This document shows, one piece after another, positions 19,615 to 40,709 of a stretch of 64,000 bases of DNA (position 1 is its first letter; each line of letters starts with the position of its first letter). A model generated the notes under the pieces. The model was not told the origin of the DNA. It did not search any database and saw only the letters and a program-made list of their open reading frames with translations. The stretch is from a virus. The DNA lies in IMG/VR virus record IMGVR_UViG_3300032242_003291, positions 208,285 through 272,284 of that record. One strand, given 5' to 3'. The position numbers were made by a program, and so were the translations under genes.

Positions 19615-20238
19615 ATGAAATCTTGGTTTGTTAACATTTCTGAACAATATAAATATTTTACATGGACCCCTGAAAGAACGGGTTCAACTCATTTTACTAA
19701 TGTAATATCAAAACTTGGTTTTAAGTCTGCAGATGTTGTTGATTATAAAATTGTTTCATACGTAGATAATGTTCGTCATAATCATTTTTGTTCTCTTTTT
19801 GAAAACCATTGGGATTATAAATTAATAATAACAACTAGGAATCCTTACTCAATGGTTATATCAAGGTCAGGTGCGTCTTCACTCAATAATATATCTGATG
19901 TTCAATCTGAAATAGAATTAAGAATTGAAAATATGATGCAAAATCCCGTTGACAGTCCTTTTTGTTGTCAATGCTTTCAAGATAGAAAACCTGATTATTT
20001 CTTGAGGTTGGAAAATTTATATGAGGATTGGCTCAAAATACCATTTGTTCAAACACATGAATTTAATCTTTCAGGTGAATTAAAAAAATTAACATCAATC
20101 AGGTTGAATGAACAAAAAAATACTGAAAACATTAATTATTGGAAAAAATATTACAACAAAAGGATTGCTGATTTAGTTTACTATAATTTCCCAAACAATT
20201 TCGAATTATTTGGATATGATAAAGATTCTTGGAAATAA
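19615..20238 (+). CDS. Sulfotransferase-like protein (paralog of 31054..31719).
   Basis: TPERTGSTH resembles the sulfotransferase 5'-PSB motif (PKSGTT-like). TTRNPYSMVISRSG resembles the 3'-PB motif (RDPxDxxVS). Confidence 0.5.
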   Translation: MKSWFVNISEQYKYFTWTPERTGSTHFTNVISKLGFKSADVVDYKIVSYVDNVRHNHFCSLFENHWDYKLIITTRNPYSMVISRSGASSLNNISDVQSEIELRIENMMQNPVDSPFCCQCFQDRKPDYFLRLENLYEDWLKIPFVQTHEFNLSGELKKLTSIRLNEQKNTENINYWKKYYNKRIADLVYYNFPNNFELFGYDKDSWK

Positions 20239-20240
20239 GA

Positions 20241-20681
20241 TTACATTTGGTTCAAGACCATATGTTCAATCTCATTTTTATTAATCAAATATACAGGTAA
20301 GTGTGTCAAGTGTTTTATATTAATTGCTTTGTATAACCTATTTAATCCATCTGAAACTGATAAATTACCATCTTTTTCTTTTACCACTAATAAGGGATAA
20401 GATAAATCTGCCTTCAAAACTCTATTCTTATCGTTAGGATTACTAATGTCATAACTTAAGTCCCACCATTCCAAATTATGTTTAATTTTACTTAATGGAA
20501 ATTTTTTATGTAAATATTTTTCGGGGTTACTTTCAACAAAATCATATATGGATTTTACACTAAAAAGATTGCCATCGTCATCGGCAAATTTACTATCCTC
20601 AAAAGGTTCATTAACATCTCTATCTAATTTATCTTCATATAAGATACTTTTGATTCTTGATATTTCTTCGTGAAGTTTCAT
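20241..20681 (-). CDS. Hypothetical protein.
   Basis: ORF track. Confidence 0.4.
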   Translation of the reverse strand: MKLHEEISRIKSILYEDKLDRDVNEPFEDSKFADDDGNLFSVKSIYDFVESNPEKYLHKKFPLSKIKHNLEWWDLSYDISNPNDKNRVLKADLSYPLLVVKEKDGNLSVSDGLNRLYKAINIKHLTHLPVYLINKNEIEHMVLNQM

Positions 20682-21085
20682 TATTTTTCTCCGTACATTA
20701 ATTCTTCATATTTGAAAAAATCTTTTTCAAATGATTTAATAAAAATACTAGCCAATACGTTAGCCATATTTTCTTCAGGTCCACCAATATCTTTTATTGG
20801 TTGGTCGTCTCTTAATCCCATTTTTTGATGTTGATATTCATGTACCCATTCATGTGCAATTGTTTTGAGAACATCGATTAATAGACGATGTGCAGATAAA
20901 ACATATATTTCATGATTAGGAAGTCTAACTCCTGTAGTCATTGGCTCAACTCTTTTTTCTAAAAATGTAAAAGTGACATCCTCAGTAAGTTGTAGTTTGG
21001 TTTGAATAAATTTAATAAAATCTTTAATCACTTTTATTTCGTCAGGATTAAATAACTTTTTGGTATTTTTAAGACAGACTCTCAT
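20681..21085 (-). CDS. HExxH zinc-metallopeptidase-like small protein (IAHEWVHEYQH).
   Basis: HExxH plus a downstream H/E. Confidence 0.4.
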   Translation of the reverse strand: MRVCLKNTKKLFNPDEIKVIKDFIKFIQTKLQLTEDVTFTFLEKRVEPMTTGVRLPNHEIYVLSAHRLLIDVLKTIAHEWVHEYQHQKMGLRDDQPIKDIGGPEENMANVLASIFIKSFEKDFFKYEELMYGEK

Positions 21086-22190
21086 GATTATAAATATCTG
21101 TAATCATTTTTAATGCCTGAGCAATTATTTGATGCATGTCGTAATACACATATGTTGCCAATCTGCCACCAAATATAACGTTTTTAAGACCCTTAGTTAG
21201 TTCGTGATACCTATTATAGACCTGAGTGTTTTTATCGTCTCTAATTGGGTAATATGGTTCGTTATGACCATCGTATTCTTCAGGGAACTCGTAACTTATG
21301 ATTGTACCTTTTTGACCTTGATAGTCAAACCATTTATGTTCTAATATTCTGGTAAAAAGAGTTGTGGAATCTGTATAATTAACCACAGGATTACCTTGGA
21401 AATTACCTTCATCTATCGTAACATTGGTCCAACTCAAACTTCTGTAATCTAACTTACCAAACTGATAATCAAAATATCTGTCTATCGGTCCTGTATATAT
21501 TATTTTCTCTGCAAGATTGTCATAATATTCACGGTTATCGAAATAATCTTGACCTAAAGAAACATCAATACCTTCTAACATTTTTTCAAATATTTGAGTA
21601 TATCCACCTATAGGTATTCCAGTATATTTGTCATTAAAGTAATTACTATCCCACGTGAATCTTATAGGTAATCTTTTAATAATTGATGCTGGTAATTCAC
21701 TACAGGGTCTACCCCATTGTTTAGTGGTATAGCCATTGATAAGTTTTTCGTAAATATCATCACCAACAATTGACCTTGCTTGTTCTTCGAGATTTTTAAC
21801 TTCGCCTTTATACCTTTGTTTTTTGATGATTTCTTTTGCATCTTCTTCGGTTTTAACACCCCACAGTTGGTTAAAGGTCCACATGTTGAATGGGAGTGTG
21901 AACATTTCTCCGTTGTAATTCGCAATAACATTATGACTATATTGTTTAAATTCAGCAAATTGATTTATGTAATCCCAAATATATTTTTCATTAGTGTGGA
22001 ATATATGTGCCCCGTATCTGTGAACATGAATACCATTAACATTTTCAGTGTAACAATTTCCTCCAAGAGTGTTTCTTTTATCAATGACTAAACAAGATTT
22101 ACCTCTCTTAGTAAGTTCATAAGCACAAACGGAACCATAAGGTCCCGCTCCTATTATGAGGTAATCATATTTTTTATCGATTAAAATCAT
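21069..22190 (-). CDS. glf: UDP-galactopyranose mutase.
   Basis: N-terminal FAD-binding motif YDYLIIGAGPYGSV, ...LVIDKRNTLGGNCYTE..., HRYGAHIFHT. This is the characteristic UGM N-terminus. Typical length of about 370 aa. Confidence 0.75.
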   Translation of the reverse strand: MILIDKKYDYLIIGAGPYGSVCAYELTKRGKSCLVIDKRNTLGGNCYTENVNGIHVHRYGAHIFHTNEKYIWDYINQFAEFKQYSHNVIANYNGEMFTLPFNMWTFNQLWGVKTEEDAKEIIKKQRYKGEVKNLEEQARSIVGDDIYEKLINGYTTKQWGRPCSELPASIIKRLPIRFTWDSNYFNDKYTGIPIGGYTQIFEKMLEGIDVSLGQDYFDNREYYDNLAEKIIYTGPIDRYFDYQFGKLDYRSLSWTNVTIDEGNFQGNPVVNYTDSTTLFTRILEHKWFDYQGQKGTIISYEFPEEYDGHNEPYYPIRDDKNTQVYNRYHELTKGLKNVIFGGRLATYVYYDMHQIIAQALKMITDIYNHESLS

Positions 22191-23344
22191 TTGAAATCAA
22201 ATTTAATTGAATCTAAATTAATTGAAAATTCTCCAACCTTTTTTTCTATTTTGTTTTTCCAATCAACAAGATGGTTGCTTGAATTGTAATAAGCTCTATC
22301 TTCAATAAGGAACGCAAGTGTTGGGAATGGATTAACTCTTTCAGGTTGTAACATTTTTTTAAAATGAGGAATCATTTCTTCTAACTTTCCTTTTCTTTCT
22401 AAATGTTCACACAAATAGAGTAAATGTTCATTTCTTTGTGGTTGGAATTGTTCAGCCAATAAATAATGTTCTTCAGCAGATTTATTGTCTCCAATAAAAC
22501 TATGTGCATGTCCCATCGTACAAAGAGCAAAATAACACATTTCATCTTCATGTTTAGCAGTCTTAGAGTTAGACCAATCATGAGTTAATTCTAAAAATCT
22601 TTCATAGTACCATATTGAACGTCTAGCATATTCATCGGAATGTTTTTTACCAAAGGGTAGTTCACTTGGATTACCATAACAATCAGCATAACTTTTGGCA
22701 ATATACCATAAATGATAATAGTCTTCCAAAACTTTATTTCCAACAACCTTATCTTTCTCTAATTCCAACGCATCATTTAGAAATTTTCTTGGTACGTGCC
22801 AAGTTTCACCATCTTGTGATACCTTGTGTCTAAACCCCCATGGCATTCCAACTCTTTGAAACCCTTCTCCGATTTCAGGTAAATGAATTGTCTCGTGTCT
22901 TTTATCATGTTGGAAAAACCAAGGTAATTTAGCATTCCAAAGCCATGTTCTAAAATATTTGGTATCACCAGCTTCAGCACCAATATTGAAACTTTGTATT
23001 GATGTGTTATCAAATATAGACCAATCAAAATCTTCATCAACATGAAGTCTTTCATCAGCATCCATTCTTAAAATCCAATCACATCCATGTAAAGTTTTAA
23101 GTGCTTCTTGCAGGGTATGGTCTCTGTTAAATCCAGGAAAGTTCCATTCAGTAAAATAAGTAAATCCTGGTATTTTTTTTTCTTCAAAGAAATTATCAAT
23201 AACTTCTTTTGTGTTATCTTCGGTTCCATTACATTGGATTACATAATAATCTATATATGGTGCAACTGACTCCAACATTCTTGTAATGGTCTTAGACTCA
23301 TTGCCGACCATAGCATTCAAACAAATTTTTGTTTTTTTATTCAT
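22187..23344 (-). CDS. Putative GT-A-fold glycosyltransferase, or hypothetical.
   Basis: N-terminal KICLNAMVGNESKTI and a DxD-like WILRMDADERL. Confidence 0.4.
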   Translation of the reverse strand: MNKKTKICLNAMVGNESKTITRMLESVAPYIDYYVIQCNGTEDNTKEVIDNFFEEKKIPGFTYFTEWNFPGFNRDHTLQEALKTLHGCDWILRMDADERLHVDEDFDWSIFDNTSIQSFNIGAEAGDTKYFRTWLWNAKLPWFFQHDKRHETIHLPEIGEGFQRVGMPWGFRHKVSQDGETWHVPRKFLNDALELEKDKVVGNKVLEDYYHLWYIAKSYADCYGNPSELPFGKKHSDEYARRSIWYYERFLELTHDWSNSKTAKHEDEMCYFALCTMGHAHSFIGDNKSAEEHYLLAEQFQPQRNEHLLYLCEHLERKGKLEEMIPHFKKMLQPERVNPFPTLAFLIEDRAYYNSSNHLVDWKNKIEKKVGEFSINLDSIKFDFK

Positions 23345-24584
23345 AAATGTAATTCATAACTTGTTCTTCTTTGAAGAACTTTTTAACGGGTTGATGATTC
23401 TGAAATTTATGAGAATGTTCTCTTTCTTCATCCCAACACCAATCTTCAAATCCTAATTCTTGGATTCTTTTATGTATTGCCTTGTCATAATAATCTCTTA
23501 TCAATCTGGCTCTTCTGTTTATATCTTGTGCATTATTATCAACTGTACTATTTCTATTGTTATATTGTAAGTATAACATTCGTTTTACGTGAATAAACCT
23601 TGTATGTAAAAAACTCTTAACAATCATTTCAAAATCATCAGCAACGGGGGTATTTTTGTTATGTCCACCGATTTTGTGGTAAAGATTTCTTTCCCACATT
23701 CTAACGTGGTCTGGCATTGAAATATTGAATCTTATTGTTAAAGGATTTATATCAGGGTACCAATGAGCTAAATAATCTTTACCGTCAGCGTTAACCCATG
23801 TATGACCAGCATATCCAAAATCAAAATAGTTATCATGTCTTCCGTACCAATTACCTGACCAATCGTGGTCATATGTTTTCATTTCTCCATCATCATATAA
23901 TTCACAAACATCGCTATATAAAAATCCTGCATCAGGATGTTTTAAAATTGCGTCATTACATATCTCAAGACACTTATTTACAAATTTATCATCGTGGTCT
24001 AACTCAACCAACCAATCGCCATCACATAACATTGCCGCCCTATGTTTAGCAAGTCCGACATTACCACCTGATACTGGTAATATTTTATGTATTTTTACCC
24101 TATAATCATTTTTAGATATATCTTGGATAATATTCCATGTCTCATCATCAGGTGAATCATCAACAATAACCCATTCCCAATTTGTCCACGTTTGATTAAC
24201 CAAACCTTGATAGGTTCTTTTAATTCTTTCTCCTGTTTGATATGTTGGAGTAAAAATTGAGAATCTCGGTCTGTTGACTTTAGTATGTCTAAAAACTGTT
24301 TGACACACTATAACATTTGCCAACACATTATCGCCCAACATCTCATCATAATGAATGTGCATTTGTCTCAATTGGTGATGAGGAATTTCGATTAGTTCAT
24401 TAAAAGATATAATTAAATCAGGTTGATAATTTGTATAATCACCGACAACATCATTGTTATAAGGTAAAGAATAGACAACAACGTCGTCAAACAAAGATTC
24501 TTCAAAATAAACATCAGAAACTAAAGTTATTTCTCCTTTGATTTCTAGTCCATAAACAATTGCGCTTGGTTTTTTTGTCTTCAT
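23337..24584 (-). CDS. Family-2 glycosyltransferase with an extra N-terminal domain.
   Basis: FSIFTPTYQTGERIKRTYQGLVNQTWTNWEWVIVDDSPDD is a typical GT2 core. Confidence 0.55.
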   Translation of the reverse strand: MKTKKPSAIVYGLEIKGEITLVSDVYFEESLFDDVVVYSLPYNNDVVGDYTNYQPDLIISFNELIEIPHHQLRQMHIHYDEMLGDNVLANVIVCQTVFRHTKVNRPRFSIFTPTYQTGERIKRTYQGLVNQTWTNWEWVIVDDSPDDETWNIIQDISKNDYRVKIHKILPVSGGNVGLAKHRAAMLCDGDWLVELDHDDKFVNKCLEICNDAILKHPDAGFLYSDVCELYDDGEMKTYDHDWSGNWYGRHDNYFDFGYAGHTWVNADGKDYLAHWYPDINPLTIRFNISMPDHVRMWERNLYHKIGGHNKNTPVADDFEMIVKSFLHTRFIHVKRMLYLQYNNRNSTVDNNAQDINRRARLIRDYYDKAIHKRIQELGFEDWCWDEEREHSHKFQNHQPVKKFFKEEQVMNYIYE

Positions 24585-24910
24585 GTTTCGTAAGGGTCAT
24601 TCAAATCCCAACTTGTTAATACAAATTCTAATTGAAGAAAAGTAATTTGTCCATAGTCATCTTTAATTGCGGTCGCTTTTAACCCTCCGCTTGAAACAAA
24701 ATATTCTTCTTCAGGTGAAGCATATAATAAACAATTTTTGATTACTGATTCGAGTCTTTCTCGGGCCGCTATTCTTACATCGTCAACAGTTGGAATTCCG
24801 TTTGGATACCATATCCATTCGAGGCATGTCATAGCTTTTTGAATTTTTTCGTATTCAAAATTGTTCATTATATCAAACATCATCTTCTGATGTCTCTCCC
24901 TATGTTTCAT
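24581..24910 (-). CDS. Hypothetical protein.
   Basis: ORF track. Confidence 0.35.
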   Translation of the reverse strand: MKHRERHQKMMFDIMNNFEYEKIQKAMTCLEWIWYPNGIPTVDDVRIAARERLESVIKNCLLYASPEEEYFVSSGGLKATAIKDDYGQITFLQLEFVLTSWDLNDPYET

Positions 24911-25158
24911 TAGTTTAACTTATATTTGATGCCATCACCAAACTTAATCCAACCTTTTTTCTTTTTCATTCCAAAATGGTCTAATACCATTTTATAATTT
25001 CTTGGGTCAAGTACGTTGTTTTTTGAAAGTTTTTTTAATGTTGATAAAAATTCAACGACTTCCATTTCAGATATTTCGTTGTTCTCAATTAATTCTTTTA
25101 GATTAGATTTCATACTATTAGTTTTTACAAAGGTAATAAATAAAAAACCCCTAATCAA
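24910..25158 (-). CDS. Hypothetical protein. Start probably MKSNLKEL at about 25113.
   Basis: ORF track. Confidence 0.3.
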   Translation of the reverse strand: MIRGFLFITFVKTNSMKSNLKELIENNEISEMEVVEFLSTLKKLSKNNVLDPRNYKMVLDHFGMKKKKGWIKFGDGIKYKLN

Positions 25159-25172
25159 ATGTTAGGGGTTTG
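25141..25172 (-). terminator. Intrinsic terminator (cccctaa-tcaaatg-ttagggg followed by T-run).
   Basis: Downstream of minus gene 25189..25674. Confidence 0.5.
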
Positions 25173-25188
25173 TTTATTGATTGTTTTG

Positions 25189-25674
25189 TTAAAGATTTTT
25201 TGGTTTACCAGCTCCTCTGTATGCTTTCTTATAATTTGGTTCATTCAGACTACTAATTTTAACACCTTCATATTTATTTGAAGCATGGACAAACATTGTT
25301 TCACCTATGTAAGTTCCGCAATGCCATTTGGATGGAGATGCCTTACTTTTGAAAAAAACAATATCACCGACCTGTAAACTATCCTTCTTTACTCTTTCCG
25401 TTGTCTCCCATTGTAAAATACAGGTATTTTCAATGTTTATCTTATAAACATCCGAAGCCAGTCTTTTGTTAAATTGAGAGCAATCAATACCTTTCTCGGT
25501 ACTTCCTCCCAATTTGTATGGTTTTCTTAACCAATAGGTAATAAAATTATTCAAATTAGAATCTACTGCGAATCTGGGTTTAGTTTCAAATATTTGTGTT
25601 GGAACAAACACCTGAGCGTTTAGTTTTGTTGTAAATAAAAGTACAATAACTGTACTAAAAATAAGTTTTTTCAT
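25189..25674 (-). CDS. Secreted NlpC/P60-family cell-wall peptidase.
   Basis: Signal peptide MKKLIFSTVIVLLFTTKLNAQ. Cys motif GIDCSQF. His region WHCGTYIG...FVHAS. Confidence 0.55.
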   Translation of the reverse strand: MKKLIFSTVIVLLFTTKLNAQVFVPTQIFETKPRFAVDSNLNNFITYWLRKPYKLGGSTEKGIDCSQFNKRLASDVYKINIENTCILQWETTERVKKDSLQVGDIVFFKSKASPSKWHCGTYIGETMFVHASNKYEGVKISSLNEPNYKKAYRGAGKPKNL

Positions 25675-28331: not shown

Positions 28332-28757
28332 TTGAAATTTTTTTATAAGTCAAATCTATTTATTACTATGATTAACAAAGAATCTTTGGTCGAGAAGTTA
28401 AAATATTTGATTACTGTAAATGGGAAATCTAAAATGTTTGACATAATGAACGTTTATATTGAACTAAACTTTGTTGACCAAGAACAAACTAAGTTAACAG
28501 GTTATGATTTGGATGTCAAATTTGATTATCAAGGAGCATTTGATTTTGAAATGTCCACTTTTTTATATGATATTCAAAAGATGGAACAAAAACTAAGAGA
28601 ATTTGTTGGTGAATATGTTTTAACTCCTGATGGTAAAATTGTAAGTCGTGCAAACACAGACGTTTCAATGTCAGACGCAAAGGTTTTTAGCATAGAGTTT
28701 GCCGTGGACGAAAAACACATCTTTGATTTAGGATATAGCTTTTATTTTGGAGAATAG
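28332..28757 (+). CDS. Hypothetical protein.
   Basis: ORF track. TAttTTTG at about 28311. Confidence 0.35.
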   Translation: MKFFYKSNLFITMINKESLVEKLKYLITVNGKSKMFDIMNVYIELNFVDQEQTKLTGYDLDVKFDYQGAFDFEMSTFLYDIQKMEQKLREFVGEYVLTPDGKIVSRANTDVSMSDAKVFSIEFAVDEKHIFDLGYSFYFGE

Positions 28758-29601
28758 TATGAGTGATAAATTAAAAAGATTAGCCAAGAACCTTTCGGAA
28801 CTATCATTAGCCGAGGTTGACAACCTACAAGAGGTTTACATCAGACTATGCGGTGTGATGTCCAATCAAAAAGAATACTTCGAACATCTCGGAACTTCCA
28901 ACGTAATCAAATTACTTTTTTATATTTGGTCTTACAAACAAACAGGTCAGTTTGAAATGGGTGATAAGATGATAAATCAAATTGCCTTTGCAATCCTTAT
29001 CACAACAGAAGGTGACAATTATGTTGAATCCTGTGATGGTTGTGCAGGCGATGGTTACGTCAGATGTGATGTTTGTGATGGAACTGGTGGAGTAGAATGT
29101 TCAGAATGTGATGGAACAGGTGAAGAAAATTGTTATCAATGTGATGGTGAAGGTGAAGTTGGTGGTGAAACTTGTGATGAATGTGAGGGTACAGGTAGTA
29201 TGACATGTACAAATTGTGATGGTGATGAAAATTTACAATGTTCTGAATGTGATGGTGGAGATAAAACATGTGATACCTGTGACGGGAATGGTGATGTTCA
29301 AACAGATGAGTACGAATATAAAAAATATTATATAGTGACTTGGAGCAAACTAATCAAAGACAGATGTGAGATAACCGAGGGTGATACTGACATCACAATG
29401 AGTGAATATGATTTTGATAGACTAAGAGAAAAATATGTAGTATTACATCTTGAAAACTTACATGATGAATTTCAAGAGTATGTTCAATCTAATGAAATGT
29501 ATTGTACAACCTATACAGATACCCCAAGATTATACTTCACACAACATATGGAACAATACTTCAAAGAAGACCGTGACGTAATAAAAAACTATATCGTCTA
29601 A
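28747..29601 (+). CDS. Protein with about 8 tandem CxxCxGxG-like (DnaJ-type zinc finger) repeats.
   Basis: CDGCAGDGYVRCDVCDGTGGVECSECDGTGEENCYQCDGEGEVGGETCDECEGTGSMTCTNCDGDENLQCSECDGGDKTCDTCDGNGDV. Confidence 0.5.
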   Translation: MENSMSDKLKRLAKNLSELSLAEVDNLQEVYIRLCGVMSNQKEYFEHLGTSNVIKLLFYIWSYKQTGQFEMGDKMINQIAFAILITTEGDNYVESCDGCAGDGYVRCDVCDGTGGVECSECDGTGEENCYQCDGEGEVGGETCDECEGTGSMTCTNCDGDENLQCSECDGGDKTCDTCDGNGDVQTDEYEYKKYYIVTWSKLIKDRCEITEGDTDITMSEYDFDRLREKYVVLHLENLHDEFQEYVQSNEMYCTTYTDTPRLYFTQHMEQYFKEDRDVIKNYIV

Positions 29602-31053: not shown

Positions 31054-31719
31054 ATGAACAATTTTTTTTTATTTTCTGAAAAACATGAGTCTTTTGTATG
31101 GCTTCCATCGAGAACAGGAAGTAATCATTCATTTAGTATTCTAAAGTCTTTCGAGTTTGAAAATTATACATATTCAAAAAAAACTAATATGTTGGAACGT
31201 TCAAATACTTTTGGTTATGGGCATTCACTTAATCGATTTCCAAACGATGAAAATTATTGTTTGATAAGTACCGCAAGGCATCCATATACAAGATTGGTTT
31301 CTTTTTTCAAGATTTCAAGATGTTTCAAATATAAAAATAGTTATTCAATAAATTATACGATGGATGAACCTCTGAACGAAAGAAAATTAAAATTCAAAAA
31401 TTTTTTAGATGGTATATTAAATAATCCATCTATAATTCATCCTGCACTTAGAAGTTATACTTTAGATAGAATTCCTAACTTTTTTTTAAGGGTTGAAAAT
31501 TTGTATGAAGACTATATTAAAATTCCCTTCATATCATCAAGTGAATTTAATTTGAGTGGTGAATTAGAAAAAAAATGTTTAATAAAAGAAAACCCAAACA
31601 AAATCGATTTGACTCCTTGGCGAGAATATTTTGACCAATCAGTCGCAGATTTGATTTACAGTAAAACTGAACAATATTGTAACTTATTAGGTTATGAAAG
31701 GGATATTTGGAAGAATTAA
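31054..31719 (+). CDS. Sulfotransferase-like protein (paralog of 19615..20238).
   Basis: LPSRTGSNHS and STARHPYTRLVS correspond to the 5'-PSB and 3'-PB-like motifs. Conserved C-terminus with the paralog. Confidence 0.5.
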   Translation: MNNFFLFSEKHESFVWLPSRTGSNHSFSILKSFEFENYTYSKKTNMLERSNTFGYGHSLNRFPNDENYCLISTARHPYTRLVSFFKISRCFKYKNSYSINYTMDEPLNERKLKFKNFLDGILNNPSIIHPALRSYTLDRIPNFFLRVENLYEDYIKIPFISSSEFNLSGELEKKCLIKENPNKIDLTPWREYFDQSVADLIYSKTEQYCNLLGYERDIWKN

Positions 31720-32261
31720 TTCTTGATAGGATTTTGAATATCCGACATAAGTCTATAAGTTCTTATGATACCTAAATCAGTTAAAGTAACTCTTTCAACT
31801 TCTATTCCCCAATCTTTTGCCAATACTTTAACCTCTTCTGTAATGACATCATTAACATCAACCAAGTCATTCCAGTCTGTTCTTTCAACAATATCTCTAA
31901 TAACTCCTTGAGTGGTGTCAACAAGGACATCCGCAGCGTGATTAACACTCATTAGAAATTTTTTCACATCATACACATGATATCTTATTATTGATTTTAA
32001 TACAATATTTTTTTCATCCTGTGTAGTTAAAGTTTGAGGTTGGAGATGTACTGTTTGTGTGATAACATATGATGTCCAAATATGGTCTAAAAACGGGATT
32101 TTGAATCTAATTCCAGGTTTTATAATTCTTAAAAACTTTCCGCCTCTCATGTGAATTCCTCCCATCCATTCACTAACAATAACCACAGGTATTAGTTCAT
32201 CTTTTAAGTTTAACAGGAAATCTATCAGTTTATCGAACATATATTTTAATTTGAAATACAA
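31716..32261 (-). CDS. SPFH/band-7 (stomatin/HflKC-like) domain protein. True start probably the ATG at about 32240 (MFDKLIDF).
   Basis: IPVVIVSEWMGGIHMRGGKFLRIIKPGIRFKIPFLDHI...TQDEKNIVLKSIIRYHVYD matches the SPFH core pattern. Confidence 0.6.
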   Translation of the reverse strand: MYFKLKYMFDKLIDFLLNLKDELIPVVIVSEWMGGIHMRGGKFLRIIKPGIRFKIPFLDHIWTSYVITQTVHLQPQTLTTQDEKNIVLKSIIRYHVYDVKKFLMSVNHAADVLVDTTQGVIRDIVERTDWNDLVDVNDVITEEVKVLAKDWGIEVERVTLTDLGIIRTYRLMSDIQNPIKN

Positions 32262-34529: not shown

Positions 34530-34609
34530 AGAAGAACTTTTCAATTCGTCAAATCTTTTTTTAAAAATAGGGAACCTCGATTTTACGACCATAGTCAACC
34601 CATTCTTAG

Positions 34610-34681
34610 TTGCGAGGGATGGATTCGAACCACCGACCTAAAGGTTATGAGCCTTCCGAGCTACCTCTGCTCTACCTCACG
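34610..34681 (-). tRNA. tRNA with CAU anticodon (Met, or Ile2 if modified), 72 nt, no encoded CCA.
   Basis: Minus strand reads CGTGAGG-TA-GAGC-AGAGGTA-GCTC-G-GAAGG-CTCATAA-CCTTT-AGGTC-GGTGG-TTCGAAT-CCATC-CCTCGCA-A. Canonical T-loop GGTTCGAATCC, anticodon loop CUCAUAA, 7-nt D-loop with GG. Position 1:72 is a C:A mismatch, as in bacterial initiator tRNA. Confidence 0.6.
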
Positions 34682-34846
34682 ATATATCTTAATGATTACA
34701 AACCCACTTCCCCACGGTCACCTATCCACGTCATGCGCTGGTTGTACCAGCGGGTGTAATCAAATTTATTAAAGAACTATCTCAAAAAGAAGTCCCACAA
34801 GCTTCAGTATTTCTCTCGAATCACACACTCGTGGGACATTTGTTTT

Positions 34847-34854
34847 ACAAAGGT
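34847..34854 (-). promoter_or_regulatory. TAccTTTG -7 box (minus strand), about 165 nt upstream of the tRNA.
   Basis: ttttacaaaggtaagtg. Confidence 0.4.
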
Positions 34855-34979
34855 AAGTGATAGTTTTGACACTGTCAAATTTTTATAAAACTTTTTTTGG
34901 GGATGTTTGTCCATTCGGACTTGGATATATAAATATATCCGTTTTCATCAAAGTCTCACAAAGATAGATAAATTTTTCA

Positions 34980-35399
34980 CTATTGTAAAATAATTTCAGC
35001 TAATTTGTAAAAATATTCTCCTGATGTCTCAGGTTTTATCTCTTTCAGAGTAAAATAACCACACTCTGTATGTTCATCTCCATCTATTGCATTCAACAGG
35101 TCAGGGTATAATGGAGTCTCAATTTCTAATAAATAAACATACATAAAACCTTTTACTTTTTTTCCGTCTCGGGTATGTCTTGGGATTAATCCGACAAACT
35201 TTAATTCAAGGTCACCAATATTAATATTTGTTTCCTCGAGAAACTCTCTTTTAGCGCCCTCTTGTGTTGTTTCATTTTCTTCTAACTTGCCACCAGGTAT
35301 AGACCACATACCAGGATATGACCCCTGATTATTTCTTTTACATAAAAGAAGTTTGTTTTTATATTTTACAGCAACCCCGACGTATCTTTTTTTATCCAT
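34980..35399 (-). CDS. NUDIX hydrolase.
   Basis: Nudix box GGKLEENETTQEGAKREFLEETNI matches GX5EX7REUXEEXGU. Confidence 0.65.
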   Translation of the reverse strand: MDKKRYVGVAVKYKNKLLLCKRNNQGSYPGMWSIPGGKLEENETTQEGAKREFLEETNINIGDLELKFVGLIPRHTRDGKKVKGFMYVYLLEIETPLYPDLLNAIDGDEHTECGYFTLKEIKPETSGEYFYKLAEIILQ

Positions 35400-35761
35400 G
35401 GTATTTATATTATATGAAAGTTAAAATTAACGAAAATATTATTAAAGTAAAAACATTAATTGACAAACATTCTCAAGCAATTGGTATGATGGGAAAAAAA
35501 TTTGACAAATCATTTAATGGTTTATTATTTTTAATGGGTGGAAAAAAACAATGCTTTTGGATGAAGAATTGTATCATCCCATTAGACATAATAATAATAA
35601 AAAATAATGTAATAGTTAATATACATCAAGATTGTCCTCCTTGTAATGAAGAACCTTGTCCTTCTTATTGTGGAAGAGGTAATATAGTTTTAGAACTTGC
35701 TGGTGGTAGTTGTGAGAGTCTTAACATACAACCTGGTGATTCTGTTGAATATCTATTTTAA
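35318..35761 (+). CDS. DUF192-family protein. Likely start MKVKINEN at about 35414.
   Basis: GMMGKK...GLLFLMGGKKQCFWMKNCIIPLDIIII...CPPC...IVLELAGGSCESLNIQPGDSV fits the DUF192/COG1430 pattern. Confidence 0.5.
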   Translation: MTPDYFFYIKEVCFYILQQPRRIFFYPWYLYYMKVKINENIIKVKTLIDKHSQAIGMMGKKFDKSFNGLLFLMGGKKQCFWMKNCIIPLDIIIIKNNVIVNIHQDCPPCNEEPCPSYCGRGNIVLELAGGSCESLNIQPGDSVEYLF

Positions 35762-37180
35762 TTTAGATTCTTTTTCTTCTTCAATCTTTTCTTTTAGTTT
35801 TGTTTTGAATTCGTTGGCTATCATCTTTGTAAATTTAACATAAGGGTGGTCTTCGCTCTCAGGATTATAACGATAAGAACCTTGAGGTGGTCTTGTACCT
35901 CTACCCAAATAACTTAATCCTCCAATGTTTGTGATACATTTATGCCCACCTGAATTAGATTGAATTAAATCCCATGCATTTACCAAGATACTGTCTAAAA
36001 TGTTTTTTTCTCTATCAGTCAAATCTTTGAATGGTTTCTCCATCATCTCCCTAATCTTATCTAAAGCTTCCTCCCCTTTTGGAATACCTATGAATTTACC
36101 ACCATATATCGCATCAAAATCTTGGAACGTATACCCAATACTTTCAGGACCAACACTAGTCTCGCTAATCCATTTAATTGTAGATAATGGTATTTTCTTG
36201 TCTTTGAGTTGACCTTCCCATTTTGATAATACTTCTTGTGCTATCTCACCTAAATTTACGCCTTTAAGTCCTCGGTCTTTTTTGAAGGGATTACAAGATG
36301 CTTGAACTAATCCCATGGGCCAAGCCATAATCAAAAAATCGGATTCAGGATTATTTCTGAATGGTGTGTATCTATCATAAGAACCTGGTTTGAACATACT
36401 ACCACCACCATATTGATAAATTATATTATCACTAACCTGAGGAAAATCCTTCATTTGTTGTGCATAATCATCTGCATTTGATTGTAATTCTTCAGGACCT
36501 ACTGAATTGGTCTTTTTCATCCACTCTTTGATGTTTCCTAATATTGAAAGTAATGATGGTTCCGAATCCATAACCAATCCTTCCAAAAAACCTGGCTTAT
36601 TTTTGAATGCTAAAATTAATTTGTTAATGACCAAACCTAACAACATTTTATTTTTTTGTAATGATTTGTCTTTATCGAATCTGTATATATAATTTACGAC
36701 TTCATCAGGAGTAATATTGTGTTTAATAAAATCCGCAGAGTCTACAGTATTAATTAACAAAACATCTGATGTTGGAAACAAATCTTTTGTTGATACTACT
36801 TGAGATATCGTTTCGACATTTGAACGTGCACCTCTAAATTGTTTTGATGTTCCCTTTTCAACCCCTACTTGTGTGTCATGATGGTCAGTATGAATTTTGA
36901 ACATTGGTTTACCGTGAGCAAAATCTACAAGGACAGGCATTGTATCACCTGTTGCATCATTTTTTTTAACTGAAAACTCCTTGTCACCATATTGAATTAC
37001 ATGAGCCCCAACAACATCAATACCATTATCTTCAAGATATTTTTTCATTGCAATTGCTGTTGTAACACCATCTAAGTCCTGATGAAAATAAATTTCGGCT
37101 TTGGGATATCTTTTCCTCAAAGCCGAAATATCTCTTATACCGCTTTCGTTAATTAATTTTTTCATTAAAGTCCAATCCAA
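35753..37180 (-). CDS. DHH-family phosphoesterase (NrnA/GdpP/RecJ-like catalytic core) with a large C-terminal extension.
   Basis: Motifs FHQDLDGVTTAIAM (DxD), LVDFAHG, IHTDHHDT (DHH). Confidence 0.55.
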   Translation of the reverse strand: MDWTLMKKLINESGIRDISALRKRYPKAEIYFHQDLDGVTTAIAMKKYLEDNGIDVVGAHVIQYGDKEFSVKKNDATGDTMPVLVDFAHGKPMFKIHTDHHDTQVGVEKGTSKQFRGARSNVETISQVVSTKDLFPTSDVLLINTVDSADFIKHNITPDEVVNYIYRFDKDKSLQKNKMLLGLVINKLILAFKNKPGFLEGLVMDSEPSLLSILGNIKEWMKKTNSVGPEELQSNADDYAQQMKDFPQVSDNIIYQYGGGSMFKPGSYDRYTPFRNNPESDFLIMAWPMGLVQASCNPFKKDRGLKGVNLGEIAQEVLSKWEGQLKDKKIPLSTIKWISETSVGPESIGYTFQDFDAIYGGKFIGIPKGEEALDKIREMMEKPFKDLTDREKNILDSILVNAWDLIQSNSGGHKCITNIGGLSYLGRGTRPPQGSYRYNPESEDHPYVKFTKMIANEFKTKLKEKIEEEKESKLK

Positions 37181-37530
37181 TTTAGGAATCTATCCATTAA
37201 ACCTCCTTCATCTGCAACAAGGTCTTGTAATTGTTTTCTGTCTTGTGGTGGCATTTTACTCCAAGTTTCTTCACCCCACACTCCATCAGGTCTTCTACAA
37301 CCAATACTTGATTGATATCTCGATATTGCTTGTGATGTTTGTGATGTTTGATTGATGTCCGTTTTACCGTCAACAGTCAGTGGTTGTCTATTATCACCTG
37401 TAATTTTTTTATTATTCAAGAATCTTTGAATTGCTCTAATGAATTGTCTATCCATGTTTTGTTCTGAAATAACTCTTTTAACAAGATTAGTTAAATCGTT
37501 TTCTGTAAGTCTTATTATTTTTTTTGCCAT
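37165..37530 (-). CDS. Propeptide-motif family member with a peptidoglycan-binding-like domain.
   Basis: MAKKIIRLTENDLTNLVKRVISEQ. LTVDGKTDINQTSQTSQAISRYQSSIGCRRPDGVWGEETW resembles the PG_binding_1 pattern DG.fG..T..A...fQ...gl..DGvvG..Tw. Confidence 0.5.
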   Translation of the reverse strand: MAKKIIRLTENDLTNLVKRVISEQNMDRQFIRAIQRFLNNKKITGDNRQPLTVDGKTDINQTSQTSQAISRYQSSIGCRRPDGVWGEETWSKMPPQDRKQLQDLVADEGGLMDRFLNWIGL

Positions 37531-37545
37531 GTTATTGTTTTTATA

Positions 37546-38718
37546 TTAAACTGCTGCTAATGCCGATTTAGCCACTTGACTACCAAATAGTGATGAGAAA
37601 AAGTCTCCCACAGGATTTGATGATGATGTTGATTGTGTTGTTGATTGTGAAGGTTGTGTTTGTTGTTGAGTTCCTTGAGGTGTTTCTGTACCAAAACTAT
37701 CTTTAAAATATTGTTGTGCTTGTGGTGTCTGATTATATTGTGCAACTTTAGACTCAAACTTATCTTGACCCATTTTTTCAACTGCTTCCTCAGGTCCTAC
37801 AAAATTTCCTATTCCCATCCAATCTAAAAAACCCAACCACCATTTGGTTTGTCTTGCTAAAGCTCTAACTGATTTGTTTCTACCCATCAACTGTGGCATG
37901 CCACCAAATAAAGTTTTCCAAGATAAAGCACCTTTAGTTGTCCTATATGATGTAAAGAGTCCTCCCGCTTCTTTGGACATTTTAATTAAATTTTCTAAGT
38001 TTTTAACTTGGTCAGCTTTGCTCAGTCTCAATATACCAGCACCACCCGCAGGAATTCCTTTAATTTTTGCCGCTAAATCAACACCAGCAGTTCTTATAGC
38101 CGCTCCTTTAGTTGCTCCTTTTTCAAATAATTCAATCCATTGTAATATTGTGTTTTTTAACCCTTTAAATGGTCCCATCGGCATTTTTTCGATGAAACCT
38201 TTCATTTTACTTCCAATTCTACCCATTCCCTCTGTAAATTTACCAATAATTCCACCACCTTTAGTAAGTTTTTCAAGTTCAGCTGCCGCTTCTACAGATT
38301 TACCTGCTTCAGATAATTTTAACACTCCCTCCAAAGCTTTGGCACTCGGTGCTCCAAGTTTTAATGCCCCCATCACAGGTTTTGCAACAATATCACCAAT
38401 ATATGGAACCGCAGACACTAAAGATAAAAATCCAAATAACTTATCTCCTTGAGAGATGTAAGAAATTCCATTAACTAAATCTACAACACCAGTTGGGTCA
38501 AAAATTCCAACAATATCACCCAATGTATTATACCAATGACTTTCATTTAATTTTTTGGCTTTTTTTGGATACAAAACTTTTAAGAATTCTACAACAAATT
38601 CTTTTTCGTTAGTTGAAAATTTTTCCCAATTTTCAGTTGCTAATTTCCTATTATTTTCTTTTGAAATGTTTTCTTGAATTACTGCAAGTTGTTTTGTGGA
38701 TATAATAATTTCCGCCAT
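37546..38718 (-). CDS. Hypothetical large virion protein. N-terminus MAEIIISTKQLAVIQENISKE. Gly/Ala-rich amphipathic body. Paralog of 563..2008.
   Basis: Shared segment LFGFLSLVSAVPYIGDIVAKPVMGALKLGA versus AFSLLPFIGEIPGVKQLGSKAMAALG. Confidence 0.5.
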   Translation of the reverse strand: MAEIIISTKQLAVIQENISKENNRKLATENWEKFSTNEKEFVVEFLKVLYPKKAKKLNESHWYNTLGDIVGIFDPTGVVDLVNGISYISQGDKLFGFLSLVSAVPYIGDIVAKPVMGALKLGAPSAKALEGVLKLSEAGKSVEAAAELEKLTKGGGIIGKFTEGMGRIGSKMKGFIEKMPMGPFKGLKNTILQWIELFEKGATKGAAIRTAGVDLAAKIKGIPAGGAGILRLSKADQVKNLENLIKMSKEAGGLFTSYRTTKGALSWKTLFGGMPQLMGRNKSVRALARQTKWWLGFLDWMGIGNFVGPEEAVEKMGQDKFESKVAQYNQTPQAQQYFKDSFGTETPQGTQQQTQPSQSTTQSTSSSNPVGDFFSSLFGSQVAKSALAAV

Positions 38719-38747
38719 TTTTATTTTTCTTTATAAATATCCAAGAA

Positions 38748-38775
38748 ACAAAAAAAGGGTCATTCGACCCTTTTA
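38748..38775 (-). terminator. Intrinsic terminator (gggtc-attc-gaccc followed by T-run).
   Basis: Downstream of minus gene 38776..39663. Confidence 0.5.
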
Positions 38776-39663
38776 TTATAAACCTAATTCTAATTGTTTG
38801 TTCAAATCAACAAAATGTTGTACTCTTTCTTTTGCAATTTTGGTATAAGCATCACTTAATTCAATCCCAATCCACCTTCTGTTCCATATTTCAGCAGCAC
38901 AAATACTTGTACCTGAACCTGTAAATGGGTCTAACACAATATCATTTTTATATGATAGTATTTTGATGGCTTTGACTGGAATATCCATTGAGAATGTTGC
39001 CTTAGTCAATTGCTTGGTATCTGCAAAGTAATCCCATTGACCATAAACTAAATCCATAAATTCTTTCTTATCATCTTCTTGATATACATTTTTCTTTTTT
39101 ACTGCACCGTCCTCCTGCTCGACGTCAATAATTTGTCCTTTCCATTGAGGTTCACCTTTAATTTTCTTAATGTGTGTTTTTTTGTAAGCCAACAATACAC
39201 ATTCTTTTGGATTATATATGTATGGTGCCGATGGTGACATCCAAGAACCCCACGCTGTGGTTTTACTCCTATGTGGAGATTCTTCTTCCAAATCAACTAT
39301 ACCATAAAACTTATAACCAATGTTTTTCATAATCTGCCAAAGTTCTGATACCATTAAAATTCTCCCACCTTTATCCTGTCTGTTAATTTCATAAGGAATG
39401 TTTAGGGCTATCCTCCCATCATCTTTCAATACTCTGTACGCCTCTCTTAACCAATTAGCACTGAAAACTTTGTATTGTTCAAATTCTATATCATCATCAA
39501 ATGTATCATATTTGATTCCAACACCGTAAGGTGGTGATGTTACGATTAGGTCTACGGAAGACTCAGGCATTTTTGCCATGACTTCAATACAATCCCCATT
39601 AATTACTTTACCTATATAATCTTCCATTATTTTTATTTTACTATTACTACGTCGCCCTTCCAA
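38776..39663 (-). CDS. DNA methyltransferase, beta-class amino-MTase (N4-cytosine or N6-adenine). Likely start MEDYIGKVINGDC at about 39627.
   Basis: Motif IV IVTSPPYGVG lies N-terminal to motif I VLDPFTGSGTS. This order defines the beta class. Confidence 0.65.
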   Translation of the reverse strand: MEGRRSNSKIKIMEDYIGKVINGDCIEVMAKMPESSVDLIVTSPPYGVGIKYDTFDDDIEFEQYKVFSANWLREAYRVLKDDGRIALNIPYEINRQDKGGRILMVSELWQIMKNIGYKFYGIVDLEEESPHRSKTTAWGSWMSPSAPYIYNPKECVLLAYKKTHIKKIKGEPQWKGQIIDVEQEDGAVKKKNVYQEDDKKEFMDLVYGQWDYFADTKQLTKATFSMDIPVKAIKILSYKNDIVLDPFTGSGTSICAAEIWNRRWIGIELSDAYTKIAKERVQHFVDLNKQLELGL

Positions 39664-39866
39664 ATGACTTCATTTGCCTGACAACTCATATGATGTTTAT
39701 CCACTCGTTCACCTCTTTTATTATCCCAAACTAAATCTCTTGTGGTGTGTAAAGGTATCTCAACTATTACGTTAGATGCTGTCCATTCTACGCCATCAAT
39801 TAGAATTCTCCAAAACATGTGATTATCTTCACACAAGGTATTCCATCTTATTTTAACGTCTATCAT
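39633..39866 (-). CDS. Small hypothetical protein.
   Basis: ORF track. Confidence 0.3.
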   Translation of the reverse strand: MIDVKIRWNTLCEDNHMFWRILIDGVEWTASNVIVEIPLHTTRDLVWDNKRGERVDKHHMSCQANEVIWKGDVVIVK

Positions 39867-40297
39867 AACTTACCTTCTTGCTTTAGTTGTTCTCTGATTT
39901 TGGTTGCGGAGATTTCACTAACTTCTTGTGGTGGTATATGTTCGATAACATCATAACCGACTCCCCTTCCGAAATTAACTGACTCTATATCTGGGATTTT
40001 AATAACTTCAACCCTTCCTTCACTGATTAAATCCAACAATTCAACAGTTATGTTTGAATGAACTTGATTGGCTGTGAAAGGATTTTTTTCATCAGGTTCA
40101 ACATCCCTAATACAAATTAAAACATTTTTTCCTTGTTCTAATCTTTGGTCTATTAACCATCTATGACCTGCGTGCCATGGCTGCCATCTTCCAATAAACA
40201 TTGAATATTGTTTACCGACGCTGTTTTTTAATTTTGGGTCTCCCTCTACGTGTATTTTTTCCATATTAATATTCGTACGCCAGAATTGTTCTAGCAC
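39863..40297 (-). CDS. HxGH nucleotidyltransferase, closest to NMN/NaMN adenylyltransferase (NadM/NadR type).
   Basis: FIGRWQPWHAGH closely resembles the NMNAT signature GRFQPxHxGH. The C-terminal ISATKIREQL resembles the ISSTxIR motif. Confidence 0.55.
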   Translation of the reverse strand: MLEQFWRTNINMEKIHVEGDPKLKNSVGKQYSMFIGRWQPWHAGHRWLIDQRLEQGKNVLICIRDVEPDEKNPFTANQVHSNITVELLDLISEGRVEVIKIPDIESVNFGRGVGYDVIEHIPPQEVSEISATKIREQLKQEGKL

Positions 40298-40709
40298 ATT
40301 CTTGAACCGTTTTATTATCAGTATTGATATCTACGAAAAGCTCAGTTGGAGCTTCATAGTTTTCTACAAAGAAATTTTCACGTCCTCTCACCTCTGTTGT
40401 ATGAACGTAAAATTCAACAAGATTATCTCCCATTTTTTTCTTGAAGTTCTCTCTTTGGTCTTTATACGGTGAAACTAACGACACAATAACATTATGTCCT
40501 TTAGATACTAGATATTGTGAAAGTTGTTGAGCCAACTCGATATTCTTTCTTCTACCTTGTTCCGAATAATCTTTATTATCAAATAATTCTCTGATGTCAT
40601 CACCATCAACATTGAATGAATTTTGAGTTAAAAGATTATTACAAATGTATTTTGCAATTGTAGTTTTTCCTGCTCCAGGTTGTCCTGTTAGCCAATAAAT
40701 TTTAGCCAT
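40266..40709 (-). CDS. P-loop kinase, best match adenylylsulfate (APS) kinase CysC-like. The alternative is NadR-type ribosylnicotinamide kinase.
   Basis: Walker A GQPGAGKTT. Then VDGDDIRELF corresponds to APS-kinase LDGDNVR. KNIELAQQL corresponds to ENIRR. LVSPYKDQRE corresponds to ISPYRxDR. Confidence 0.55.
   Translation of the reverse strand: MAKIYWLTGQPGAGKTTIAKYICNNLLTQNSFNVDGDDIRELFDNKDYSEQGRRKNIELAQQLSQYLVSKGHNVIVSLVSPYKDQRENFKKKMGDNLVEFYVHTTEVRGRENFFVENYEAPTELFVDINTDNKTVQECARTILAYEY

Follow-up and report, generated by a model that had tools for sequence, protein, structure and literature searches.

Two small sulfotransferase-fold proteins, an APS-kinase-like protein and a short nucleotidyltransferase as a candidate sulfation module of a large uncultured phage

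PAPS synthases, among them PAPSS1/2 and the bacterial Sat-CysC and CysN-CysC fusions, join an adenylyltransferase to a 3′-kinase and provide 3′-phosphoadenosine 5′-phosphosulfate (PAPS) in two steps. A 64,000-nucleotide stretch of viral DNA (positions 208,285 to 272,284 of IMG/VR record IMGVR_UViG_3300032242_003291), which will be referred to as the window, encodes a pair of proteins that may do the same on a much smaller scale, namely KIN, which resembles kinases of adenosine 5′-phosphosulfate (APS), and directly downstream of it NT, a short nucleotidyltransferase. The window also encodes ST1 and ST2, two paralogous proteins with a predicted sulfotransferase fold. We propose that the phage carries its own sulfation module, in which NT and KIN would act as a compact PAPS synthase feeding ST1 and ST2, probably for transfer of sulfate onto a glycan. 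Taken jointly with the assignment of the window to a large uncultured phage, we hold this proposal with slightly better than even confidence. The four genes are the following:

19615..20238, plus strand: ST1, 207 amino acids, sulfotransferase-fold protein by prediction, paralog 1, with PERTGSTH and TTRNPYSMVIS (240 bits with the hidden Markov model (HMM) of the family)
31054..31719, plus strand: ST2, 221 amino acids, sulfotransferase-fold protein by prediction, paralog 2, with PSRTGSNH and TARHPYTRLVS
40266..40709, minus strand: KIN, 147 amino acids, APS-kinase-like P-loop kinase, with GQPGAGKT, VDGDDIR and VSPYKDQRE
39863..40264, minus strand: NT, 133 amino acids, HxGH nucleotidyltransferase, with GRWQPWHAGH, FGRGVGY and ISATKIR

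In human PAPSS1 the kinase domain, which is homologous to KIN (match at residues 55-144 of 630), is located at the N-terminus and the adenylyltransferase at the C-terminus, which is the order also found in fused KIN-NT proteins. PAPS synthases, however, comprise ~550-630 residues compared to ~250 for fused KIN-NT, their adenylyltransferase (PF01747/CysD) has no detectable similarity to NT, a NadM-like HxGH domain of ~110-133 residues, and KIN is devoid of ~18 residues of the kinase lid. An accessory PAPS-forming unit combined with a specific carbohydrate sulfotransferase is likewise found in rhizobial Nod-factor sulfation, where NodP/NodQ for PAPS synthesis are encoded together with the sulfotransferase NodH. 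NodPQ are canonical CysD/CysN-CysC homologs, whereas NT belongs to a different family and KIN is lid-truncated.

Among phages, the closest described arrangement is that of the cultured Ralstonia jumbo phage phiRSL1 (L209; L-numbers denote fetched genome loci carrying homologs), in which a single operon (ORF230-238) contains an annotated APS kinase (ORF238), three glycosyltransferases and a 'galactose-3-O-sulfotransferase' (ORF232). ORF238 shares the KIN domain and ORF232 matches the HMM of the ST family (E = 2e-9); in place of NT, however, ORF238 carries an unrelated C-terminal domain, and the nucleotidyltransferases ORF235 and ORF236 are present in the cluster. This cluster, which is known from annotation alone, adjoins a thymidylate-synthase-family gene, and therefore hypermodified DNA rather than a surface glycan is a possible target there. 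Its glycosyltransferases are annotated as hydroxymethylcytosine (HMC)-glucosyltransferase-like. Small proteins with the same sulfotransferase fold as ST1 and ST2 are moreover annotated in cyanophages (ACG-2014f, S-T4, P-SSM7), in Roseobacter phage SIO1 (gp5.1), in OM43 phages, and in Pithovirus and Mimiviridae, none of them linked to a dedicated donor-synthesis cassette. An initial annotation of the window, made from the letters alone, had stated that sulfotransferases are very rarely reported in phages; this is wrong, as a structure search of BFVD returns dozens of annotated ones, among them one of phiRSL1, and virome papers list them as auxiliary genes with 'function unclear' (PMC10580990, PMC8290583). 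Given the phiRSL1 cluster, a phage sulfotransferase together with an APS kinase is not new as annotation either. The ST/KIN/NT module and its fusions, the lid-less kinase and the candidate non-canonical adenylyltransferase nevertheless appear undescribed, and a literature search found no paper linking ST, KIN and NT genes.

ST1 and ST2 are paralogs, as the initial annotation had suggested, with 32% identity over their full length (E = 7e-35). They belong to a divergent family that remains sub-threshold in Pfam: ST1 has no Pfam match, ST2 reaches 18.2 bits on Sulfotransfer_2 (cut-off 22), neither matches a PHROG or NCBIfam model, and a tblastn search with ST2 against 50,697 GenBank phage records yielded no match. 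An exhaustive profile search, by contrast with these single-sequence results, retrieved a family of ~200-residue proteins with 426 representatives at 50% clustering. Within an alignment of 132 members, 38 match Sulfotransfer_2 (best E = 5e-8) and 35 match Sulfotransfer_1. Searching PDB with the family profile returned sulfotransferases in 23 out of 24 matches, the alignment spanning the RNPxxxxxS 3′-phosphate motif and the subsequent YEDxxxD region, and HMMER aligned the 3′-phosphate-binding (3′-PB) motif of the family to RNPKDxxVS of SULT4A1 and SULT2A8. Structure prediction was consistent with these profiles. The first AlphaFold2 model of ST2, based on an 11-sequence alignment, had a pLDDT of 79.5 and gave weak Foldseek matches (E ≥ 0.09, TM ~0.4), nearly all of them to sulfotransferases; it was replaced by a confident model from a deep alignment (pLDDT 93.7, pTM 0.90), for which the top BFVD matches are annotated viral sulfotransferases. 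Both lines thus assign the paralogs to the sulfotransferase α/β fold rather than to another P-loop family, and ST1 and ST2 are predicted to share it.

The PAPS-binding-like motifs pointed out in the initial annotation are genuine, and since they are conserved across the 132-member alignment they exceed what chance would produce. The consensus of the family is P-x-(K/R)-T-(G/A)-(S/T), a histidine at position 57 (ST2 numbering), and R-N-P-Y-x-R-x-x-S. A 5′-phosphosulfate-binding loop of the PKxG[TS][TS] type is found as PERTGST in ST1 and as PSRTGSN in ST2, and the 132 members carry Lys (69) or Arg (53; 122 for both), Thr (104), Gly or Ala (128) and Ser or Thr (131) at its successive positions. 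The R-x-P-x(5)-S pattern of the 3′-PB motif is found as RNPYSMVIS in ST1 and RHPYTRLVS in ST2, its Arg, Pro and Ser being conserved in 128, 131 and 124 of the members, respectively. His57 is a histidine in 124/132 and precedes the 3′-PB arginine by 18 residues, a spacing similar to that in cytosolic SULTs; it may correspond to the catalytic base (His or Glu) that sulfotransferases have at the acceptor site. Fold and PAPS-type motifs argue for PAPS-dependent sulfate transfer by both proteins.

KIN scores 69.4 bits on the Pfam APS_kinase family PF01583 (cut-off 21.1), matching positions 3-110 of the 152 in the profile, and no other kinase family in Pfam scores it nearly as high; the assignment as an APS kinase rather than a NadR-type kinase, which had been the alternative considered at the outset, was thus borne out. 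All 21 PDB matches at E ≤ 0.001 are APS kinases or PAPS synthases. In the APS kinases 8a8h and 7yq0, the aligned counterparts of KIN residues R40, Y48, R53 and V79-S80-P81 are R, F, R and ISP, and thereby the APS-binding positions correspond to Arg483, Phe492, Arg497 and Ile523-Ser524 of Mycobacterium tuberculosis CysC, and VDGD to its LDGD. In that enzyme Arg483 and Arg497 contact the phosphosulfate and Phe492 the adenine, together with Ile523-Ser524, and roles have likewise been described for the P-loop and the LDGD motif (PMC4373884). The second aromatic residue of the adenine sandwich is plausibly F113 of KIN, located in a loosely aligned 'ENFF'. The mobile lid of APS kinases consists of ~30 residues and bears the catalytic Lys and an ATP-stacking Arg; in CysC, Lys562 and Arg559 come from the lid, and the enzyme requires an intact lid to be active (PMC4373884). 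Positions 104-116 of KIN provide 12 residues compared to 30 in 7yq0 (109-139), i.e., ~18 lid residues are missing and the lid is thus largely deleted, in contrast to a canonical phage APS kinase, which keeps the full lid. The short form is common, with more than 3152 homologs of 141-160 residues and 64-95% identity. In the fused family NAD(E) replaces the VDGD of KIN, and the fused kinases carry FNADEVRANINKDLGFSEADRIEQARRMG, which is very close to the APS-binding segment of APS kinases. By these alignments, KIN is an APS-kinase homolog in which the APS-binding residues are kept, in an atypical, lid-truncated form, and the conserved catalytic and APS-binding residues suggest that it phosphorylates APS at the 3′ position.

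The start codon of NT, an ATG, lies 1 nt past the stop codon of KIN (the mechanically called open reading frame (ORF) begins at a GTG at 40297). Its only Pfam match is CTP_transf_like with 27.1 bits, and its closest relatives in both NCBIfam and PDB are NadM-type nicotinamide mononucleotide adenylyltransferases (NMNATs), with similarity confined to the N-terminal ~75-80 residues. Thus, NT scores 37.4 on NF002243 (cut-off 127) and 33.2 on TIGR01527 (cut-off 181.2), covering profile positions ~2-81 of 167-175; overall, NT stays at 25-37 bits against NMNAT cut-offs of 127-181, and no full-length match to a NadM-type NMNAT above the curated cut-off was obtained. The PDB profile matches span residues 4-82 of NMNATs with 168-181 residues. 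At 112-133 amino acids, members of the NT family are ~40-50 residues shorter than NMNATs and lack the middle NMNAT segment. The NadM-type motifs GRFQPxHxGH and ISxTxxR are present in NT and invariant in the family alignment (A4), in which the arginines R32 and R79 are in addition invariant and family-specific; we know of no equivalents of R32 and R79 in NadM NMNATs. ATP sulfurylases are characterized by the motifs QxRNPxHxxH and GRDHAG. Neither the window nor the ~200 fetched KIN-NT loci contained canonical ATP sulfurylase, CysD or CysH motifs, and NT is not classed as an ATP sulfurylase because similarity to PF01747/CysD and the respective motifs were not found. The invariant GR(D/G/E)VGY of NT was considered as the equivalent of the 'GRD loop' of ATP sulfurylases and discarded, since its Asp varies within the family and hhhGxD-type motifs are common in the nucleotidyltransferase superfamily.

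Every relative examined has KIN next to NT, in the conserved order DUF3310, KIN, NT, N6/N4 methyltransferase, and they form a single 257-residue ORF in the IMG/VR contigs L028 and L029. A search with the fused protein returned 7633 proteins at E ≤ 0.001, of which the best 120 all have the fused length of ~240-280 amino acids. Because they are adjacent in all relatives and fused in thousands of proteins, KIN and NT most simply read as one functional unit. In the fused family the N-terminal half is best recognized as apsK and the C-terminal half as NMNAT, both below cut-off, and no NCBIfam model reaches its cut-off for the family. A scan of viral genomes identified 163 loci with KIN-NT. Fused proteins are encoded by the cultured Xylella phages Sano (gp35), Salvo and Bacata, the Stenotrophomonas phages DLP_6 (AAY80_227), BCU1, Suzuki and Bhz60, the Xanthomonas phages Seregon and AhaSv, and Clavibacter phage 33. 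The fusion is also encoded by no fewer than 232 bacterial species, the majority of them Alphaproteobacteria (Bradyrhizobium, Microvirga, Inquilinus, Reyranella, Chelatococcus); for the bacterial genome scan, alignment A3 had to serve as query, as a single fused protein found nothing. As far as is known, Alphaproteobacteria with KIN-NT already possess canonical sulfate activation.

In the window itself ST1 and ST2 are 9-20 kb away from KIN, and for this reason the window by itself does not allow the coherence of the pathway to be assessed. It is other genomes that support it. To describe the surroundings of KIN-NT, 80 diverse viral loci out of the 163 were fetched and their genes within ±7 kb clustered without the use of labels. 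The ST family turned out to be the most widespread neighbour, with 46 genes in 24/80 loci and up to five tandem copies (L172, L180, L196). Six further loci (L130-L133, L135, L201) as well as L042 encode a distinct small sulfotransferase (Sulfotransfer_2, 36.6 bits vs a cut-off of 22), so that sulfotransferase-like neighbours are found in 24-30 of the 80 loci overall. The density of ST-family genes was 4.0 per 100 kb around viral KIN-NT, whereas the control loci, 456 kb of DnaJ neighbourhoods from the same phage group, contained none. ST genes are located immediately upstream of KIN on the same strand in L009-L011, L017, L020-L025 and L036, and immediately upstream of fused KIN-NT in the distant L028 and L029. 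Phages similar to that of the window carry the ST gene at three alternative sites: beside a Band_7 gene, beside a block of two family 2 glycosyltransferase (GT2) genes and a UDP-galactopyranose mutase (UGM) gene, or directly upstream of KIN. The surroundings of bacterial KIN-NT (1.26 Mb) contained three ST matches, all of which touch KIN-NT. In two metagenome-assembled genomes (MAGs; L105 and L094) the ST gene lies 97 and 47 nt upstream, respectively, and in Rhizobium sp. BK376 (L087 9167-10834, NZ_SLZG01000001.1) ST, KIN and NT are combined in a single 555-amino-acid ORF, whose N-terminal domain matches estrogen sulfotransferase (E = 4.6e-5) and the ST family profile (92.9% probability). BK376 is a cultured organism and thus provides the whole ST-KIN-NT module as one protein. 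An intermediate conclusion that the kinase is uncoupled from the paralogs, drawn from more than 3000 close KIN homologs compared to ~10 of ST2, was overturned by this locus analysis.

With regard to the initial annotation, the three ORFs it had named for a sulfation system and all strings it had quoted are present at the positions given, the kinase ORF being on the minus strand, and the comparisons support the sulfation interpretation of the three genes. What had been overlooked is NT as a fourth component, and the kinase turned out to be of the atypical lid-truncated form.

In the mechanism we propose, NT would adenylylate sulfate with ATP to yield APS, KIN would phosphorylate the 3′-OH of APS to yield PAPS, and ST1 and ST2 would move the sulfate from PAPS to an acceptor that is probably built by the products of the adjacent GT2, UGM and acetyltransferase genes. 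NT and KIN, being translationally coupled, would act as a two-step donor synthase, and with both activation steps encoded by the phage, sulfation would become independent of the sulfate-activation capacity of the host. The assignment of sulfate adenylylation to NT follows pathway logic, as it is the sole missing activity, coupling or fusion of ATP sulfurylase with APS kinase is the usual arrangement, and no canonical sulfurylase motif was found; we infer this step rather than read it from similarity. The most far-reaching form of the proposal is that NT represents a third, minimal class of sulfate adenylyltransferase which, fused or translationally coupled to a lid-less APS kinase, makes up a 'mini PAPS synthase' of ~250 residues, hitherto overlooked though widespread in large phages and Alphaproteobacteria, and providing PAPS for a large family of ~200-residue sulfotransferases by which glycans of the phage or the cell surface are modified. 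We put this forward tentatively, with confidence somewhat short of even.

Several observations weigh against a phage-encoded sulfation module. Besides the distances of 9 and 20 kb between the ST genes and KIN in the window, no ST gene was found in the flanks of ~50 of the 80 viral and 77 of the 80 bacterial KIN-NT loci, and in most Alphaproteobacteria (L043, L046, L048-L127) KIN-NT stands by itself, none of its neighbours being conserved. Neither ST1 nor ST2 alone reaches a Pfam gathering threshold. KIN stays below all NCBIfam cut-offs for APS kinases (TIGR00455, 80.6 vs 138.7; NF004041, 67.1 vs 127; NF003013, 62.3 vs 163) and is devoid of ~18 residues of the lid that is essential in CysC (PMC4373884). 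NT shows no similarity to ATP sulfurylases, neither in Pfam nor in PDB at E ≤ 10 nor as a QxRNPxHxxH motif, its sole detectable relatives being the NadM-type NMN adenylyltransferases. Finally, a NUDIX gene is syntenic in the phage group of the window at a distance of ~5 kb, as NAD salvage would predict.

The last two points can be accommodated if KIN is a true APS kinase using APS from host CysDN or Sat, and NT acts separately, e.g., in NAD salvage together with NUDIX, the fusion of the two reflecting shared nucleotide handling. NadM-Nudix fusions are indeed known (PDB 2qjt, 2qjo), and phiRSL1 has the kinase domain without NT and yet a sulfotransferase. Fusion of KIN and NT in thousands of proteins, and of all three in BK376, is however hard to reconcile with an unrelated pathway for NT, which moreover matches only the first ~75-80 of 168-181 NMNAT residues and is ~40-50 residues shorter; NUDIX was found near fused KIN-NT in 6/80 viral loci compared to 24-30 for ST. 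We regard such a half-linked arrangement as unlikely. More distant still is a role of the whole KIN-NT unit in NAD metabolism, in the manner of NadR, as ribosylnicotinamide kinase plus NMNAT or as NMNAT plus NAD adenosine-ribose kinase, with STs that draw on PAPS of the host and have no more in common with KIN-NT than a variable island. NadR, like KIN-NT, joins an NMNAT to a P-loop kinase, NadM shares GRxQPxHxGH and ISxTxxR with NT, some fused proteins give weak matches to AAA_28 (NadR-type kinase), and a NADAR/YbiA-like gene lies beside KIN-NT in Sano and beside a canonical APS kinase in the uncultured phage LR756500. The domain order of NadR is nevertheless the reverse of that in KIN-NT, and KIN is far better matched as an APS kinase than as any other kinase, with the APS-binding residues, two arginines and an aromatic one, conserved. 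NADAR genes were encountered in none of the 80 viral and 80 bacterial KIN-NT loci, and the enrichment, adjacency and triple fusion of ST would be left unexplained, which makes this role quite improbable.

Two further possibilities assign another product to KIN and NT. Nucleotidyl transfer followed by 3′-phosphorylation is a known route to a donor other than PAPS, since in the O-methyl phosphoramidate (MeOPN) pathway of Campylobacter jejuni (Cj1415-Cj1418) a nucleotidyltransferase (Cj1416) and a nucleotide 3′-kinase (Cj1415) provide cytidine diphosphate (CDP)-phosphoramidate 3′-phosphate for a surface glycan (PMC11800397). The 3′-phosphorylation of dephospho-CoA is a further analogue. Cj1415 is presumably homologous to APS kinase. 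With the atypical lid of KIN, and NT not being an ATP sulfurylase, specificity may have shifted in the phage enzymes as well, and the ST-fold proteins would then transfer a group other than sulfate. The C. jejuni transferases, however, have a fold other than that of sulfotransferases, whereas ST1 and ST2 have the predicted fold and the PAPS-type motifs, and we give an alternative donor little credence. Even less probable, to a degree that we consider it marginal, is that KIN-NT resembles HldE, a sugar kinase with a sugar-1-phosphate nucleotidyltransferase, and delivers NDP-sugars to the glycosyltransferases, with the STs as independent tailoring enzymes. In L047 KIN-NT comes after the genes of an epimerase and of a SIS_2 (GmhA-like) isomerase within a glycosyltransferase cluster, and it abuts GT2, hexapeptide-repeat, NIF-phosphatase and epimerase genes in L039, L044 and L045. 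Against sugar activation, the motif with which APS kinases bind their nucleotide (APS) is conserved in KIN, and among adenylyltransferases NT is similar to those acting on nucleotides and not to those acting on sugar phosphates. The bacterial copies are mostly stand-alone and outside glycan clusters, and from the ST-KIN-NT fusion it would seem that the three parts have a cofactor, and not a sugar, in common. For the enrichment of ST genes and the triple fusion taken together, all of these alternatives offer a less simple explanation than a dedicated sulfation module.

In the vicinity of the fused gene of Sano, gp34 (L208 5559-6002) appears YbiA/NADAR-like by eye, as does L244 8074-8550 near the canonical APS kinase of LR756500; a link between KIN and NADAR/YbiA suggested by these two genomes was rejected, with 0/160 loci. 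Two genes upstream of gp35, gp33 of Sano (L208 4963-5550, 195 amino acids) contains PRSRS and HRPAREVAHS strings. As a sulfotransferase it is suggestive at most and was not accepted, its sole PDB match being the tyrosylprotein sulfotransferase TPST1 at a non-significant E of 1.3.

If a sulfation module is assumed, the most probable acceptor is a glycan made by the phage and carried by the virion or the surface of the infected cell, which is the weakest step of the model. A glycan is favoured because ST1 is located near a UGM/GT2 island and KIN-NT abuts glycan blocks in other genomes. The genes of this island and its surroundings are:

13299-13997, plus strand: GT2 (Pfam)
14100-14840, plus strand: calcineurin-like metallophosphoesterase (Pfam)
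14835-15473, minus strand: hexapeptide-repeat acetyltransferase (Pfam)
15445-16356, minus strand: BKACE (beta-keto acid cleavage enzyme), 203.7 bits
21069-22190, minus strand: UGM, GLF 256.7 bits
22187-23344, minus strand: GT2-like gene, 385 amino acids, weak GT2 matches only
23337-24584, minus strand: GT2, Glycos_transf_2 66.8 bits

A distance of 0.8 kb separates ST1 from the UGM/GT2 genes, and the same island includes the further GT2, the acetyltransferase, the metallophosphoesterase and BKACE, an enzyme unusual in phage. The UGM/GT2 block is syntenic with ST genes in L012-L019, including L016, where the ST1 ortholog (62% identity) likewise adjoins it, and the blocks abutted by KIN-NT in L039, L044, L045 and L047 comprise GT2, epimerase and hexapeptide-repeat genes. 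The initial placement of the paralogs beside a glycan block therefore applies to ST1 and not to ST2, which adjoins a Band_7/SPFH gene. This Band_7 neighbour slot is variable, some relatives having a DUF6734 gene in place of the sulfotransferase. No Pfam, NCBIfam or PDB match was obtained for the 362-amino-acid neighbour of ST1 (18300-19388).

Other acceptors have to be considered. Modified DNA may be one, as KIN-NT is close to nucleotide-metabolism genes in several phages, to a DNA methyltransferase gene in the window, and to a thymidylate-synthase-family gene in the phiRSL1 cluster. Collagen-like tail fibres may be another, since L028, L044 and DLP_6 each have a neighbouring gene for a 2OG-Fe(II) oxygenase, which might create a hydroxyl group for later modification. 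These genes (2OG-FeII_Oxy_3, prolyl-hydroxylase-like), which belong to phages that are not related to one another, are located immediately upstream of ST or KIN-NT at L028 9332-9988, L044 6357-7019 and, in DLP_6, L210 6471-7022; a jackhmmer search with the L028 oxygenase did not link the three copies.

The window is of phage origin and AT-rich, with a GC content of ~30%. Its relatives are found on IMG/VR contigs of 309-326 kb, and a megablast search of the region 19-42 kb of the window against GenBank phages gave no match. It encodes NlpC/P60 and glucosaminidase lysins (Pfam) and the DUF3310 protein that precedes KIN in the conserved gene order. The remaining features are:

28747-29601, plus strand: 284-amino-acid protein with weak, sub-cut-off Pfam matches to cysteine-rich DnaJ/BSD2-type zinc-finger domains
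31716-32261, minus strand: Band_7/SPFH-domain gene, convergent and overlapping with the end of ST2
34609-34681, minus strand: tRNA-Met (CAT), the sole tRNA, between the NUDIX gene and the ST2 region
38776-39663, minus strand: N6/N4 DNA methyltransferase, PF01555 113.6 bits, downstream of KIN-NT and at the same position in all relatives, a neighbour by synteny alone
47093-53866, minus strand: three consecutive collagen-repeat genes (607, 628 and 1023 amino acids), collagen triple-helix repeats with C-terminal Peptidase_S74
59000-59839, minus strand: D12/Dam-type DNA methyltransferase
60053-60979, minus strand: full-length DnaJ chaperone with J domain, CXXCXGXG zinc finger and C-terminal domain

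The three collagen-repeat proteins, each of which ends with an S74 domain as C-terminal intramolecular chaperone, are probably tail fibres. Their Gly-X-Y codons make the region 47093-53866 a GC-rich island of up to 50% GC compared to 30% for the genome. A 475-amino-acid protein (35753-37180) was considered as a DHH/NrnA-like phosphatase of 3′-phosphoadenosine 5′-phosphate (pAp) and dismissed, as the DHH score of 17.9 bits is below cut-off and PDB gave no support.

To our knowledge, only two types of sulfate adenylyltransferase are known, Sat and CysD. If the proposal is true, NT would add a third and much smaller type, a new enzyme for a classic reaction, and the unit with KIN would represent a compact source of PAPS with practical use in enzymatic sulfation. 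As the module or its parts are present in the cultured phages Sano, DLP_6 and phiRSL1 and in Rhizobium sp. BK376, the hypothesis is directly testable. Virome genes named 'cysC' or 'sulfotransferase' are usually interpreted as boosting host sulfur assimilation. They would have to be re-read as components of a dedicated modification system, often with tandem sulfotransferases and glycosyltransferases, and the resulting sulfated glycans on virions or infected cells might have roles in adsorption, superinfection exclusion or defence evasion.

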